Shown piece after piece: positions 3,206-15,283 of a DNA stretch of 52,239 nt. The stretch lies in the IMG/VR virus record IMGVR_UViG_3300006033_000017. The stretch is one strand, 5' to 3'. Origin of the DNA: a virus (Duplodnaviria; Heunggongvirae; Uroviricota; Caudoviricetes). Every line of letters begins with the position of its first letter. Within the stretch, counting starts at the first letter, position 1. Made by a program: the position numbers and the translations under genes. The notes under the pieces were generated by a model, which ran no database searches, was not told the origin of the DNA, and worked only from the letters and a program-made list of their open reading frames with translations.

Positions 3206-4024
3206 TTACTGAAAGCGCCAACCCCTAATGGTGTTGTCTGTAACACCATACATTTTACCTACGGCGACATATGAGTTGTTGGCTAGCAAATTCTCTAGTT
3301 CTTCTTTGGAAGGTCTCTCTATTTTGCGATGAGCTTTTGCTGAGCATTCGGGCGAGCAATATTTCTGCTTTAGCTTTGAACTAACAAACTCTTTATCGCA
3401 ACATAGACACTTCTTATCAACGCGCACACTAACTTCATATCCGTATCGCTCTGCGTTAGTCTCTAATCTCTTTTGCGTGCCTATACGATGATTTTCTACA
3501 GATTGGTTCTTTGAGAATTTTTGGAAAGCTAACTCTGCCTCTTCTGTACTACAATATACAGGAGCAATAGAAAAACTATCAACCTTTCTATGAAGTAATG
3601 TATGGCACCACACACACAGAAGGCTCAGATTACTCCATTGGTTATTACTTCGGTCTTCATCAATATGGTGGACATCTAGCATATCTAGTGTCTCACCATA
3701 GCCACAGTGATCACAAACTTTACCTGTTTCCCTTAGAAAGATAATTCTAGTCCTATGAGAATTTGGATTATCTTTCCACCTAGAGTGTTTGGCTACATAT
3801 GTATTTCTACACTGTGTATCACAAAAGTAAAGCCCTGTCTTACTGCGCTGTCTCCTTTGTCTAGTTAGGTCTAATTCTTTCCCGCAGTGATTACAGTTAC
3901 ATTTTTGCTTGGTGCTATTGGTGATATAGGCTTGATGATGTTCACGACAACAAAAGTAATTCGTCCGCGCCTGGGACGGCTTTCTATGAACGGTCTTACC
4001 ACAATATGTACATTGAACTTCCAT
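3206..4024 (-). CDS. HNH homing endonuclease-like protein with Cys-rich zinc repeats and C-terminal HTH
   Basis: CDHCG...VHHIDEDRSNNQWSNLSLLCVWCHTLLH; repeated CxxC...YC/FC motifs; C-terminal VAVGKMYGVTDNTIRGW. Confidence 0.9.
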   Translation of the reverse strand: MEVQCTYCGKTVHRKPSQARTNYFCCREHHQAYITNSTKQKCNCNHCGKELDLTRQRRQRSKTGLYFCDTQCRNTYVAKHSRWKDNPNSHRTRIIFLRETGKVCDHCGYGETLDMLDVHHIDEDRSNNQWSNLSLLCVWCHTLLHRKVDSFSIAPVYCSTEEAELAFQKFSKNQSVENHRIGTQKRLETNAERYGYEVSVRVDKKCLCCDKEFVSSKLKQKYCSPECSAKAHRKIERPSKEELENLLANNSYVAVGKMYGVTDNTIRGWRFQ

Positions 4025-5294: not shown

Positions 5295-6029
5295 TTACTT
5301 AGGAGTTGTAGTTGGTGCTGGCGTGGGCGCGGGAGTAACAGGCTTAGGTGGATACATTTTCTTAGATGTATCTTTTAGATGTTGGACATTAATGTTACTA
5401 CCAAACTTAAAGCCCATATCGCTTAATTTAGCAATAAGATCCATGGCATACACTTTGCCTTCACCTTCCAGTTCACCACTATTGATCTTAGACATAAATC
5501 TATTGGCTATACCATTAGCTATGTTCTGATTACCAGGAATCTTAGCATCAGGATTAGAATTAGCCCATGCGTAAGCTTGCTTCCAGAATGGATCAGATTC
5601 AGCATTAACATCAACAGGCGCTGTACTAGCCTCACCTTTAATCGCCTTAAGTGGATCATGTGGTGGAGGGGTAGATTTTAGTGCGCTCGGCAGTATGTCT
5701 TGTGGTGTTAAATGTTGATTATTCGTCTCTTGCGGCAAACTAGTTAATAGCTTTTTGATGTACGGGAGATTGTTGAGTATATCTTGGCTAAAACTGGGAT
5801 TTGATACATTTGAATTATAGAACTTAGGGCTAAGTTGAAGTGCTATGCCCTTGAGTATCGGGGCGCGAACTTTACCCTCAAGTTCTATAGCTAAAGCTTG
5901 GCGTTGTTGTGGCGTTAGAGCAATTAGTAATCGTCTTAGCTTTTCATCATATGGCGCAAGGGCAGTCGGGGTATCAGTAACCTCGATGGTCGGTGCGGTT
6001 ATTTCTGCATAGCGTTCAATTAGATACAT
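5295..6029 (-). CDS. hypothetical protein with Pro/Thr-rich tail
   Basis: 244 aa; C-terminus PVTPAPTPAPTTTPK. Confidence 0.75.
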   Translation of the reverse strand: MYLIERYAEITAPTIEVTDTPTALAPYDEKLRRLLIALTPQQRQALAIELEGKVRAPILKGIALQLSPKFYNSNVSNPSFSQDILNNLPYIKKLLTSLPQETNNQHLTPQDILPSALKSTPPPHDPLKAIKGEASTAPVDVNAESDPFWKQAYAWANSNPDAKIPGNQNIANGIANRFMSKINSGELEGEGKVYAMDLIAKLSDMGFKFGSNINVQHLKDTSKKMYPPKPVTPAPTPAPTTTPK

Positions 6030-8258: not shown

Positions 8259-8287
8259 AGTATAGCACCTTGGCTACGATCCCTCAA
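8259..8287 (-). promoter_or_regulatory. sigma70-type promoter for KTSC gene
   Basis: TTGAGG-17-TATACT with TG extension, then AATACT-A. Confidence 0.6.
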
Positions 8288-8555
8288 GTCGGCTTTCACC
8301 CCGCCTCCCAGGCCATTCGTAGACCTGTGGTGCGCGCCCGCGTAGACGCCGAGCCGTAATAGCCTTTTCCTCAAGCTCCCGCATCTTTCGCGTAATGTCT
8401 GTCAGTTCATCAGAAAATCCACCCATAATATCTTGGAGTACTTCATCTTCTGAATTCCTAAACATCTTCTGTAGCTTGTCAAACTTGAAACGTAATTGGA
8501 GAAGTTGCTTACGTCGATCTGCAAGAAAGACATCCTGAGGAGTAGTTACCATCAT
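8274..8555 (-). CDS. small coiled-coil-like hypothetical protein
   Basis: start MMVTT with SD GGAGGT; helical heptad-like composition. Confidence 0.7.
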   Translation of the reverse strand: MMVTTPQDVFLADRRKQLLQLRFKFDKLQKMFRNSEDEVLQDIMGGFSDELTDITRKMRELEEKAITARRLRGRAPQVYEWPGRRGESRLEGS

Positions 8556-8577
8556 CGCACCTCCACCTATATCTTTC

Positions 8578-8606
8578 ATTATAGCGCATCGGACGACCTC
8601 TTGAAA
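8578..8606 (-). promoter_or_regulatory. promoter divergent from the ncRNA locus
   Basis: TTTCAA-17-TATAAT, back to back with the plus-strand promoter at 8613. Confidence 0.6.
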
Positions 8607-8612
8607 TGCCCC

Positions 8613-8642
8613 TTGACACCCCCAGGTTCGCCGTGCTATGAT
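8613..8642 (+). promoter_or_regulatory. sigma70-type promoter P1 pointing into ORF-free DNA
   Basis: TTGACA-18-TATGAT with TG extension. Confidence 0.8.
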
Positions 8643-8648
8643 CAAATT

Positions 8649-8817
8649 GTGGGGCAGGAGTTGTCGCCTGCTTCACATGAGCCCTGGTTCTTTCCTCCTT
8701 TCTATCAGGGCTCCGCGAACAACCAGAAGGTAGACTATGTACGGGCCTCTCTCTAAGGCCCCCCACCTTGGCCCGTACAACCCCAATCCCCTAGTCTCCC
8801 TTCTGGTTGCGCCCGCG
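8649..8817 (+). ncRNA. candidate structured small RNA with anti-SD loop
   Basis: Stems 8649-58/8667-76, 8679-87/8705-13, 8720-30/8799-809, 8732-37/8792-97, 8738-47/8770-79; three G-U pairs valid only on the plus strand; begins at predicted +1. Confidence 0.65.
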
Positions 8818-8851
8818 TCCAAGTCACTCCAAAACTCACCCGAAATTCCCC

Positions 8852-8880
8852 TTGACACCTTCGACACCTAGCGCTATAAT
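8852..8880 (+). promoter_or_regulatory. consensus sigma70 promoter P2
   Basis: TTGACA-17-TATAAT, then AAGAGT-A. Confidence 0.9.
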
Positions 8881-8886
8881 AAGAGT

Positions 8887-9179
8887 ATGGAACAGGGCAC
8901 GTCACCCAGAACCTGGCGAGACAACGCCTAATCACCGGGTTTGATAGTATTTCCCGTAAAATATCCCATCCCCTTTCTTTCTCTTTGTCATGGGTTAATA
9001 TACTAAAGAGCGTTTAAACCAGAGTTCGATAAAACATACTGGCAGTAAAATGGTAGTAATCCGCTCAGTGATTCTACTCGGCCCGCAAAGTCGTTAGCTT
9101 AGACGGAGCAACTTGCAAGTAGACAAACGGGGTGAACCGAAACCTGTACAGATTAGGTTCGCCCCGCTACTCCCCTTTT
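8887..9179 (+). ncRNA. candidate second small RNA with leaderless 14-codon ORF (8887-8931)
   Basis: Follows P2; ends in 11-bp hairpin 9128-38/9156-66 then CCCCTTTT; no long ORF. Confidence 0.45.
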
Positions 9180-9428
9180 ACAAAATTGATGCCAAACGGA
9201 TCGCCAATCCCAAAAGCATCATAGTTGATAGTAATGTAACAACTATACAAACATTGCCCCGATCTTACTTTAGGGTGACGTTAGTAAGCGCTGATATTGT
9301 AGTGTTGGCGATATAACTGCTACATCTCCTTATCCAAGAGTTGGATAACGTGCATTGTGGACCGACCCAACGTCATTGGGGAAACTCAGGCAGTACATGT
9401 CTTTAAGCTCGGCAAGCTACAGTACAAC

Positions 9429-9467
9429 GGAAACGGGCAGCCACCTGATCAGTGGCTGCCCGTTTCC
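9429..9467. terminator. perfect 16-bp inverted repeat, probable terminator or processing hairpin
   Basis: GGAAACGGGCAGCCAC-ctgatca-GTGGCTGCCCGTTTCC, just 3' of minus ORF 9497-9826. Confidence 0.65.
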
Positions 9468-9496
9468 ATTTACACCAATGCTACATGCAGATCGTG

Positions 9497-9826
9497 TCAC
9501 CCAAGCCCTAATCGATACTCCCTCAATGACTCTACTGGCTTGTACATCACTAGGATATCAAACGCCCAGTCATTGCTCACTACATACCCCGATCCAAGCT
9601 CAGGCTCAAAATCAGTCCGCCACCTCAATCCAGTTACTGGCCCTACACCTAACATATCTACCGCATTGTTTGCCAACTCAATGAAGTAACTAGCATGTCC
9701 CCTCAACTTATTCTGATCAATCCGATCAAACAACGTCTCATCTACATGCTCAAAGTAAATCCGTGGCTTACGATTCCTGGGCTTCTCACGAGTCTGTACC
9801 CGCGTTACTAGATACCCGATTGCCAT
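9497..9826 (-). CDS. hypothetical protein
   Basis: 109 aa, co-oriented. Confidence 0.7.
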   Translation of the reverse strand: MAIGYLVTRVQTREKPRNRKPRIYFEHVDETLFDRIDQNKLRGHASYFIELANNAVDMLGVGPVTGLRWRTDFEPELGSGYVVSNDWAFDILVMYKPVESLREYRLGLG

Positions 9827-9830
9827 CTCT

Positions 9831-10082
9831 TTACTTCCCTTCCTCTACCTCTGCCTGGGATTCCAACTCTTCAGGTGTAGTGATCTTGTAAACGAACTCC
9901 TTGGTCGGCATCAAATGTCCAACAATGGCTTCACTCACATACCCAGTTTGTGGTACACCATCCGTCGTGTCAAACCAGTAAGTGAATTCACCATCAGGAC
10001 TAATCTCATACTCTTGTACCAACAAGAGATTAATCAGCCGAACACTCCCATCATCGAACGTCACTGCAATGAATGTTTCCAT
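9831..10082 (-). CDS. hypothetical protein
   Basis: 83 aa, SD upstream. Confidence 0.7.
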   Translation of the reverse strand: METFIAVTFDDGSVRLINLLLVQEYEISPDGEFTYWFDTTDGVPQTGYVSEAIVGHLMPTKEFVYKITTPEELESQAEVEEGK

Positions 10083-12214: not shown

Positions 12215-12244
12215 ATGGTACCACACCCCCAGCCCGCCTGTCAA
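12215..12244 (-). promoter_or_regulatory. sigma70-type promoter
   Basis: TTGACA-18-TACCAT, GTGTGG before -10, then AAGGAT-A. Confidence 0.8.
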
Positions 12245-13780: not shown

Positions 13781-13849
13781 GGGGCGCGCGGGGATAATGA
13801 ATGGCATCAAGCCCTCATCTATAAGTATTGGCATTTTCTTAGTCCTAAC

Positions 13850-14617
13850 TCATTGGCTAGTTTGAATTGTTTCTAGGATATCATCCTCATTAAAGTACAA
13901 GAAAGAGCTATATCCATAGCACCATTGTTCGCGACTATGATATTTTCCCATAATAGTAAATGAGGTAGTGTGGACTCTTTCGGGTGCGCCCCACGACAGT
14001 TTGGCTTGTTCTTTTGTCATTCCGATATGGACACTTTTCTTGGCTATGGTGGAGCAAGTTCTCTTACTCCAGTCCTTATGTTTCAGCCATATCCTACCTG
14101 CCTTACTTTCCATAAAGTCTTTATCGGAGAGGATGTTAAGTTCATCGAGACTAGATTTGATGTCGGAGTTATTAGGTTCTAGTGTAAGGGCTTGTTGCCA
14201 ACATTCCTTAGCTTTATCTAGGTCACCAGCTTGTTTTGCCTGCGCGCCATTTTCCCATAGCTGGCGTACTTGAGCTATGTTAGGTCTATCGACTTGACGT
14301 GCATGGCGGTTATTCTCATTAAGCCCCGTAAAAAGTCCTGGTAAGAAGATAAGGGTTAAACAACCGGCAGCTATAGCATCTTTTTGCGATTGCTGCTTAG
14401 CCACATACCAATATATAAAGGCTAGGATAATACATAGGATGCCTGAGAGCGGAGCAGGCATCAGAAGAAGAACGCCGACGAAGAACAAGAGGCAGCCACA
14501 ACCAGAATATCCAGAGTATTCCTGCTTTTGTTTTGCTGTTTTCTTGTCGTATTCTTCTTTACAGATGTTACAGAAACCGGCTTGGTTCCATTCCCTACCG
14601 CATCTTTGGCATATCAT
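13850..14617 (-). CDS. membrane protein with zinc ribbon, TPR and SmpA/BamE-like C-terminal domain
   Basis: CQRC...CNIC; TM helices; GDLDKAKECWQQALTLEPNN (TPR); IGMTKEQAKLSWGAP...EQWCY. Confidence 0.6.
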   Translation of the reverse strand: MICQRCGREWNQAGFCNICKEEYDKKTAKQKQEYSGYSGCGCLLFFVGVLLLMPAPLSGILCIILAFIYWYVAKQQSQKDAIAAGCLTLIFLPGLFTGLNENNRHARQVDRPNIAQVRQLWENGAQAKQAGDLDKAKECWQQALTLEPNNSDIKSSLDELNILSDKDFMESKAGRIWLKHKDWSKRTCSTIAKKSVHIGMTKEQAKLSWGAPERVHTTSFTIMGKYHSREQWCYGYSSFLYFNEDDILETIQTSQ

Positions 14618-14638
14618 AGTTATTCCTTAATTGCTTAG

Positions 14639-14863
14639 CTATTTACCAATCACCGCTAAGATAGTTGGATCGTCTTTGGTATTAATGGTGACATTGAGTT
14701 TGATTGGGAATTGTTGTTGTTTTAGTTGTTGTCGTTGGACACGGGTACAGACACAGACATAGGGGTAGATTAGAGGCGCGGCGGCAGTTAGGATGCCAAG
14801 TAAGAGACAGGCAGTGCCTATATGGTTGGGTGTTAAGTGATGATGTTTCATGACCATTCCCAT
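14639..14863 (-). CDS. small membrane protein
   Basis: 74 aa, one TM. Confidence 0.55.
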   Translation of the reverse strand: MGMVMKHHHLTPNHIGTACLLLGILTAAAPLIYPYVCVCTRVQRQQLKQQQFPIKLNVTINTKDDPTILAVIGK

Positions 14864-15283
14864 TTAGGAATCACAGGAATCAAATGATACTAACATATCA
14901 TACAGGGCTTTGAGGTTAAAGCCTCTATATGAATACTCTCTGTAGTTACCATAGTAGTCATCGCCCCAAAATCTTGTGTTTTCGCTAACTAGGGACATAA
15001 TATTCATCCACTGATCGTGAGAGAGTTTATAGGAGTCGGTTACAATTTCGAGTACAGTATCTGGGGGTTCGGGGTCGCCGCCTATTTCATAAGCCTTATT
15101 GCCCCAACAACTGCCGCCTGTTGCTTCGTTGTATAGCCAAGATTTAACGAGGTAGCGGTCCTGCATATCGAGGTAGCATTGAGTTTCGTCCTGAAGTGAA
15201 TCGGCTATGTACTCACAATCGGGGTATTGTTCAATGGTCTGTTCTAGTTTTGATATAAACTGTTCCCAGGTCATTGGCATCAT
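14864..15283 (-). CDS. hypothetical phage protein
   Basis: 139 aa; TGGSCW and DYYGN motifs. Confidence 0.7.
   Translation of the reverse strand: MMPMTWEQFISKLEQTIEQYPDCEYIADSLQDETQCYLDMQDRYLVKSWLYNEATGGSCWGNKAYEIGGDPEPPDTVLEIVTDSYKLSHDQWMNIMSLVSENTRFWGDDYYGNYREYSYRGFNLKALYDMLVSFDSCDS

Follow-up and report, generated by a model that had tools for sequence, protein, structure and literature searches.

A near-consensus promoter on the plus strand of an uncultivated phage genome points into DNA that holds no conserved open reading frame, which raises the question of what is made there and what it could do. The promoter belongs to a 52,239-nt stretch of DNA, analysed as a whole (the window), from a large uncultivated freshwater/wastewater phage; the locus recurs in identical form on a 157,149-bp ENA contig. 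The original prediction had proposed a trans-acting small RNA that begins near position 8649, folds into high-quality stems and presents, in the loop of its second hairpin, a mimic of the 16S rRNA 3' tail able to occlude Shine-Dalgarno (SD) sites.

Nearly all genes across the window lie on the minus strand. The RNA locus is a 940-bp intergenic stretch (8556-9497) situated exactly between two minus-strand units, with its own promoters pointing against them (Table 1). No plus-strand gene lies downstream of it, and transcription from the locus converges on the minus-strand operon. The neighbouring proteins are mostly without known function, DUF6876, KTSC and a methyltransferase being the only family matches.

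Table 1. Positions of the promoters, RNA elements and bordering genes of the locus, numbered as in the window
Feature	Position	Strand	Remarks
93-aa ORFan	8274-8555	-	start bounds the RNA locus on one side; SD GGAGGTG
-10 box (TATAAT) of the divergent promoter for the 93-aa gene	8578-8583	-	inverted repeat I6; invariant in haplotype B
Promoter P1	8613-8642	+	TTGACA 8613-8618, 18-nt spacer with TG (extended -10), TATGAT 8637-8642; 11/12 match
Hairpin 1	8649-8676	+	5'-terminal stem of 10-11 bp, two G-U pairs, 8-nt loop
Hairpin 2	8679-8713	+	invariant 8-bp stem and 2-bp extension differing between haplotypes; pyrimidine loop
Invariant loop core CUUUCCUCCUUUC	8690-8702	+	anti-SD-like; CCUCC unpaired probability 1.0
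Hairpin 3	8714-8817	+	4-bp closing stem and 31-bp bipartite rod (11+6, 10, 4 bp); inverted repeat I4
Unstructured spacer	8818-8851	+	C-rich, G-poor (C 15-16, G 2-3 of 34), without U tract
Promoter P2	8852-8880	+	TTGACA, 17-nt spacer, TATAAT; 12/12 match; repeat D6
RNA2 region	8887-9179	+	second pyrimidine-loop hairpin 8965-8994; terminator-like hairpin 9128-9166, then U tract 9176-9179
19-bp dyad	9426-9470		bidirectional, terminator-like; inverted repeat I2; 93% identical in haplotype B
Minus-strand operon	12194 to 9497	-	end bounds the RNA locus on the other side; promoter at 12244

As had been proposed, the strong plus-strand promoter P1 (TTGACA-18-TG-TATGAT, 11/12) is directed into ORF-free DNA, no ORF being conserved in 8556-9497. 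A second promoter, P2, follows 239 bp downstream; GAAATnCCCCTTGACACC is common to both, and in the window sequence each is preceded by GAAATnCCCC. P2 also has GCGCTATAAT in common with the region of the divergent -10 box. In the 52-kb window, no plus-strand site other than P1 and P2 reaches a promoter score of 11/12 or more, for which block-wise shuffles give an expectation of 0.54 sites per strand. On the minus strand, six sites reach this score, one of them directly upstream of tRNA-Ser. The latter (1245-1274, minus) is a perfect 12/12 extended -10 promoter, and the phage's strongest consensus promoters therefore include drivers of stable RNAs (tRNA-Ser, 1130-1216). The presence of a promoter of the same quality ahead of this tRNA would fit the assignment of the P1 and P2 products to the stable-RNA class.

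All the collections searched yielded two haplotypes of the locus only. Haplotype A is that of the window and is identical to the 157-kb ENA contig (L005) and to a Logan contig (L006); haplotype B is that of an 18-kb JGI contig (L001/L002), to which a 13-kb ENA contig (L004) is identical, the samples being independent. The two are collinear, with 84-90% identity. The hexamers of P1 and P2 are invariant between them (24 of 24 bases) while 8 spacer bases changed: in P1 the hexamers and the TG are retained and three spacer bases and position 8645 differ, and in P2 the changes affect 5 of the 17 spacer bases. Haplotype B also lacks 12 bp (CTTGAAATGCCC) at 8600-8611, between the divergent promoters, a loss that implies that the GAAATnCCCC element upstream of P1 is not essential. 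In this haplotype, the minus-strand promoter of the 93-aa gene has its -35 region overlapped by the TTGACA of P1, the two lying back to back.

The predicted +1 of P1, seven nucleotides behind the promoter, is G8649, i.e. the first base of hairpin 1; the earlier placement of the fold at this start, together with every other statement made about the sequence, proved correct. The segment that follows (8649-8817, plus strand, 169 nt), termed RNA1, has a predicted folding energy of -82.8 kcal/mol, compared with -49.6 +/- 4.1 kcal/mol for 200 dinucleotide shuffles (z -8.08), none of which folded as well, so that the stem quality is indeed beyond chance. In a GC-corrected scan of the whole window, RNA1 was the top plus-strand segment of 170 nt (z -4.1; next, -2.8). 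Its fold is predicted to persist unchanged, as an autonomous domain, within the 534-nt transcript extending from P1 to the terminator.

RNA1 is predicted to consist of three hairpins, the first of which, at the very 5' end, is probably a 5' stabiliser. The loop of hairpin 2 (8688-8704) reads UUCUUUCCUCCUUUCUA and measures 12-17 nt depending on fold and haplotype. Hairpin 3 forms a long rod with internal loops, in which a 17-bp lower stem with a bulge is followed by 10 bp, and its unpaired parts are C-rich (CCCCCCA at 8759-8765 and ACCCCAAUCCCC at 8780-8791). The unpaired state of all three stretches was reproduced, with a probability of 0.99-1.0 for the latter two and of 0.89-1.0 over loop 2, the apical loop and the internal loop, all of which are kept in haplotype B. 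The exposed pyrimidine tracts are thus 15, 7 and 12 nt long. Hairpins 2 and 3 are built of Watson-Crick pairs only, apart from one G-U pair in the extension that hairpin 2 has in haplotype A. The caveat that C-rich loops are partly expected was borne out, since the unpaired C content (0.47) is within chance of that of the shuffles (0.42 +/- 0.03, P 0.06); the unpaired pyrimidine fraction (0.81 vs 0.73 in shuffles, P<0.001) and the unpaired pyrimidine run of 15 nt (P 0.02) are modestly unusual.

Comparison of the two haplotypes, which are 91.7% identical over RNA1, indicates how this fold has been maintained. Haplotype B is predicted to adopt the same architecture (-83.2 kcal/mol, z -9.49), and the stems and the CCUCC loop, whose conservation in homologous loci bears on the original prediction, are both kept in this sole relative (92% identical). 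RNA1 has 14 substitutions in 169 nt, 11 of them unpaired in the consensus fold. In hairpin 1, five of the eight loop bases differ and the stem is intact, with 8672 U>C making a G-U pair into G-C. Hairpin 2 carries four substitutions, all at the loop margins: its loop is closed by a G-U/U-A extension in haplotype A and by C-G/C-G in haplotype B, and because these changes swap one 2-bp extension for another, the invariant UUUCCUCCUUUC stays in the loop in both. In hairpin 3, the C8742-G8775 pair is replaced by U-A through a compensatory change (8742 C>U, 8775 G>A), the other two substitutions falling in the bulge (8731) and in the internal loop (8780).

Each of the 54 base pairs in the consensus structure is of a standard type in haplotype A and haplotype B alike. 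Changed positions are fewer among paired than among unpaired bases, whether counted on the window-only fold (5/112 vs 9/57, Fisher P 0.017) or on the consensus fold (3/110 vs 11/59, P 0.0007), i.e. divergence is about 3-4% at paired and 16-19% at unpaired positions. Over whole segments, divergence amounts to 8% for RNA1, 21% for the spacer 8818-8851 and 17% for 9181-9425, and the third codon positions of two flanking genes differ by 5.5-12%. Covariation support consists of one compensatory pair and one rearranged 2-bp extension, in a set of two sequences for which a shuffle control has no power. Selection on the RNA fold and on the two promoters would give this distribution of changes. As judged from the two haplotypes, the RNA1 locus is a real, selected element, predicted to be a plus-strand RNA.

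The strand assignment bears on the possibility that the dyads act as DNA, forming hairpins or a cruciform for replication, recombination, packaging or protein binding, with the promoters only opening the region. Hairpins 2 and 3 form perfect dyads of Watson-Crick pairs on either strand, the reverse complement of RNA1 folds nearly as well (-80.5 kcal/mol, z -5.74), and a hairpin in DNA would be expected to show compensatory change just as one in RNA would, so that a strand-symmetric role, as DNA or as double-stranded RNA, is conceivable. However, the three G-U pairs that had been invoked in support of the plus direction are all present, 8652-8673 and 8653-8672 in hairpin 1 and 8687-8705 in the haplotype-A extension of hairpin 2; they work only in plus-strand RNA and would be A-C mismatches on the minus strand. 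The fold moreover begins exactly at the predicted +1, the candidate origin marked by the GC-skew turn is situated near 12.2-12.9 kb, some 3.5 kb from the fold, and a C-rich RNA would disfavour a persistent R-loop. We consider a DNA-level element highly improbable, and the plus strand is favoured by promoter orientation, by the G-U pairs and by the better predicted energy and z-score. An R-loop origin was discarded for the same two reasons (C-rich RNA, skew turn elsewhere), and a CsrB/Rsm-like GGA sponge made from the minus strand was discarded because GGA counts are ordinary and a minus-strand promoter is absent.

RNA1 does not appear to be a messenger. No reading frame on either strand of 8556-9497 is kept in haplotype B, because indels shift every frame. 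Individual candidates were rejected as well: a 61-aa gene called on the contig of the relative spans the hairpins and is an artefact rich in G and R, the reading frame of a 14-aa 'leaderless peptide' at P2 is shifted in haplotype B, the stretch 9183-9227 is too short for a small hydrophobic peptide or type I toxin and its frame is not kept, and an SD in the minus-strand loop would serve nothing more than AUG-UGA, 15 nt downstream.

Nor does RNA1 belong to a known family, in agreement with what had been stated. At gathering thresholds, Rfam covariance models found only a tRNA in the whole window, and at E up to 10 they gave only chance-level matches in 8500-9500 (E 0.3-10, unrelated eukaryotic families). 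RNA1 matched neither RsaE, 6C, RNAIII, phage pRNA, C4 antisense RNA and 6S RNA nor any other Rfam model, and the covariance-model and tRNA searches lent no support to a 6S-like or tRNA-like RNA. A covariance model of RNA1 itself found no paralogue in the window or in the loci of the relatives.

Searches for relatives were equally spare. No match was obtained by blastn against phage and plasmid collections, and no relative was found in IMG/VR with two exact or degenerate hairpin patterns and one three-block loop pattern, or with four flanking proteins (93 aa, 109 aa, DUF6876 and 177 aa). A metagenome pattern scan returned the haplotype-B contig only, as did a word-indexed search and a full HMMER search with two flanking ORFans over 1.8 billion representatives; the members of the flanking-ORFan clusters gave L004, L005 and L006, identical to haplotype B or A at the RNA1 locus. 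Other sequencing runs contain only dispersed, thinly covered contigs of this phage or of one nearly identical to it, none covering RNA1, and cDNA-labelled wastewater runs and one wetland metatranscriptome contain small shares of the window sequence. A genome-contig pattern match in a Lentisphaeraceae metagenome-assembled genome aligns as an unrelated GC-rich coding region; being a chance match, it gives nothing on the host. The best tblastn match of a phosphoesterase was to a 595-kb uncultured phage (42% identity), which is uninformative as to the host.

We then consider what the loop of hairpin 2 displays. In many bacteria the 16S rRNA 3' tail (anti-SD) ends in ...CACCUCCUUUCU-3'. RNA1 resembles it in having CCUCCUUUC, single-stranded in both haplotypes, and its loop core is complementary to the AAAGGAG-type ribosome-binding sites used by the phage; it differs from it in that the motif lies in a hairpin loop instead of at a free 3' end, and in that identity beyond 9 nt is not conserved. 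Indeed, the exact match to the common tail CCUCCUUUCU(A) was put at 11 nt and is so in haplotype A, and falls to 9 nt in haplotype B, where CCUCCUUUCUA has become CCUCCUUUCGG. The loop core, none of whose 13 positions changed compared with about 16-19% of other unpaired positions (P ~0.08-0.1), is also a perfect mirror repeat that reads the same backwards.

The claim that the loop is a 16S-tail mimic occluding SD sites is not supported by the controls. Of 1000 dinucleotide shuffles, 28.6% (29% in round figures) have one or more unpaired CCUCC, so that its occurrence in RNA1 does not exceed the compositional expectation, and the plus strand of the window contains 24 copies of CCTCC. Against 59 phage initiation regions, the loop pairs with a mean energy of -6.9 kcal/mol and a generic anti-SD tail with -7.1 kcal/mol, so that the former is no better than the latter and both are equally indiscriminate; within the window, the complementarity of RNA1 to SD regions is at the generic SD level only. 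No extended complement to the loop (16 nt, at most 3 mismatches) was found in the 52-kb window. When four pyrimidine segments were compared with the 59 translation-initiation regions and with the minus-strand transcriptome of the window, those of RNA1 matched generic purine tracts only. No match to the SSU model, or other 16S-like feature, was detected at the RNA1 locus (8500-9500). Selection probably acts to keep a pyrimidine loop with CCUCC on display; literal 16S-tail mimicry is an unproven interpretation, a special case of the pairing of a pyrimidine-rich loop with purine-rich RNA.

The bolder version of this idea, an abundant early phage RNA that acts as an anti-SD-tail decoy on a nuclease-resistant scaffold and titrates strong SDs or SD-binding factors, is a long shot. 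We know of no global, sequence-generic translational decoy of the anti-SD type described for any phage; if real, such a decoy would reprogram which mRNAs the host ribosomes initiate on during takeover.

A related proposal holds that the C/U-rich single strands titrate a protein, namely ribosomal protein S1, Rho or a phage RNA-binding protein. Rho loads on C-rich, G-poor RNA, and besides its exposed tracts of 15, 7 and 12 nt RNA1 is followed by a 34-nt C-rich, G-poor tail whose composition, and not its sequence, is conserved. A strong constitutive-type promoter and a protected 5' end would imply high abundance, and no specific RNA target was found in the window. Still, the partner protein is purely hypothetical, the repeated defined motif of CsrB/RsmZ-type sponges is absent (GGA counts on the other strand being ordinary), and the composition bias of this genome segment accounts for much of the C-richness. 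We judge such a protein sponge decidedly unlikely.

How the transcript ends is a further point. A promoter is predicted and conserved for RNA1, and no intrinsic terminator was found directly after it; the nearest terminator-like hairpin (9128-9179) lies behind P2. Since RNA1 lacks a terminator of its own, P1 transcripts must run on through P2. The intervening spacer is 79% identical between the haplotypes, with its composition kept, and possibly constitutes a Rho loading site or is simply read through into P2. The terminal hairpin 9128-9166 is conserved in haplotype B, where a U-G pair becomes C-G, and 9128-9179 is likely, on the predicted structure, the shared 3' end of the P1 and P2 transcripts. 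It may be that RNA1 represents no more than the 5' part of a longer transcript. The RNA2 body is not significantly structured (z -0.41); the 20-nt pyrimidine loop of its hairpin 8965-8994 shows one change only in haplotype B.

The RNA2 loop (8970-8993, plus) is predicted to form a 21-bp duplex with five G-U pairs (-27.5 kcal/mol) with 9837-9858 on the minus strand, a purine-rich leader just upstream of the start of the 109-aa gene (9826). Among the non-self sites in the window none pairs better, and 99% of shuffled loops do worse; in haplotype B the target site has a 6-nt deletion and other changes, so that the pairing is not clearly conserved.

These features bear on a reading that dispenses with a trans target altogether, and that we regard as rather unlikely: a cis-acting leader, processing or insulator module, in which P1 and P2 are tandem early promoters facing the operon 12194-9497 head-on. 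Hairpin 1 would stabilise the 5' end, the rod would be an RNase III-type processing or stability element, and the module would act by transcriptional interference or as antisense to read-through, separating two co-directional gene blocks. The location of the locus between two minus-strand units that it faces, and its closure by the bidirectional dyad 9426-9470, which separates the RNA locus on the plus strand from the end of the operon converging on it, are consistent with this, as is the passage of P1 transcripts through P2. The whole 940-bp region is structured on both strands. The rod (17+10+4 bp with internal loops), together with the absence of G-U pairs from hairpins 2 and 3, suits a double-stranded RNA substrate; its predicted geometry (17-bp lower stem, bulge, 10 bp) is compatible with about two turns of irregular double-stranded RNA plus an internal loop, as for RNase III.

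A precedent is the T7 early leader, where the tandem strong host promoters A1-A3 are followed by the R0.3 RNase III hairpin. The likeness consists of tandem near-consensus host promoters a few hundred bp apart and a long irregular hairpin with internal loops. By contrast, the T7 leader feeds early protein genes, whereas no plus-strand gene follows RNA1 for a leader to serve. A cis module also leaves unexplained why a 12-13-nt pyrimidine core is invariant in the loop while the loop margins are rebuilt, and interference alone needs promoters, not a conserved 170-nt fold.

In the vicinity of the dyad, both strands of 9185-9500 show significant structure (z -5.6 on the minus and -4.8 on the plus strand), centred on 9426-9470; outside the dyad, identity to haplotype B in this region is only 83%.

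Our preferred, if tentative, explanation is that RNA1 is a stable phage regulatory RNA whose C/U-rich loops act on purine-rich, SD-type sites. The fold, its conservation and that of the promoters, the lack of coding and the accessibility of the loops are results of the present analysis, from which we infer transcription itself, the 3' end, action in trans and the targets along the following lines. A host sigma-70-type RNA polymerase would transcribe RNA1 from P1, with a +1 near 8649. The RNA would comprise three autonomous parts: hairpin 1, protecting the 5' end; hairpin 2, presenting UUUCCUCCUUUC; and hairpin 3, the long two-part rod, whose apical and internal loops are rich in C. A stand-alone sRNA without an intrinsic terminator is unusual; as RNA1 has none, its 3' end would either be generated close behind the rod, by processing or by Rho, or lie at 9128-9179, where a hairpin precedes a U tract. 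In the latter case, P1 and P2 would produce nested RNAs of ~530 and ~295 nt, each with a long pyrimidine loop. The exposed C/U-rich loops would then pair in antisense fashion with purine-rich single strands, namely the SD-type regions of host or phage mRNAs, and the predicted occurrence of two long pyrimidine loops on nested transcripts is consistent with pairing to purine-rich RNA.

This mode of action has counterparts among bacterial regulators. In RsaE/RoxS, LhrC and S. aureus RNAIII, which are multi-hairpin RNAs of 100-500 nt, C- or CU-rich loops pair with G-rich SD regions. The mycobacterial 6C sRNA acts on mRNA targets through C-rich loops, without a chaperone (PMC6486639). RNA1 resembles these four in its multi-hairpin fold with three exposed C/U-rich stretches, with the reservation that they have targets and RNA1 only predicted loops. 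It differs from them in having no Rfam match, in being phage-encoded instead of chromosomal, in having no intrinsic terminator directly after the module, and in its main loop, which is the U-rich CUUUCCUCCUUUC and not a CCCC/UCCC motif.

The T4 species 1/2 RNAs are examples of phage non-coding RNAs. Lytic phages also include Staphylococcus phage K, which carries snc and lnc RNAs (PMC9241854). RNA1 is like both groups in being intergenic, promoter-driven and non-coding, with targets that are at most predicted; unlike them, it has no homology, is defined by structure and conservation and not by RNA-seq, and has an unusually stable predicted fold (z -8 to -9.5). Among phage non-coding RNAs, RNA1 is new and well defined; the general kind to which it belongs is known, and it falls outside the RsaE, 6C, LhrC and RNAIII families.

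To our knowledge, little work has been devoted to the non-coding RNAs of virulent phages, and a mechanism is available for very few of them. The anatomy of RNA1 is unusually clean: a consensus promoter is followed by a hairpin that would protect the 5' end, by a second hairpin that displays the invariant anti-SD-like loop, and by a long rod. Selection on its structure is measurable as well, and together these features make it a good candidate for a functional test. If the loops act on ribosome-binding sites, the C-rich-loop mechanism of Gram-positive sRNAs extends to phage takeover; if they do not, RNA1 is still a well-defined new phage RNA motif. The practical weight of either outcome is bounded by there being only two known haplotypes.

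Finally, the two haplotypes differ elsewhere in the window. Two segments, 13782-14880 and 5300-6026, are replaced or deleted, and haplotype B lacks the 255-aa gene 13850-14617. It also lacks the HNH endonuclease gene (3206-4024) located beside tRNA-Pro, around which it keeps this tRNA and the flanking response-regulator and glycosyltransferase genes; such a presence/absence pattern would fit a mobile homing endonuclease.
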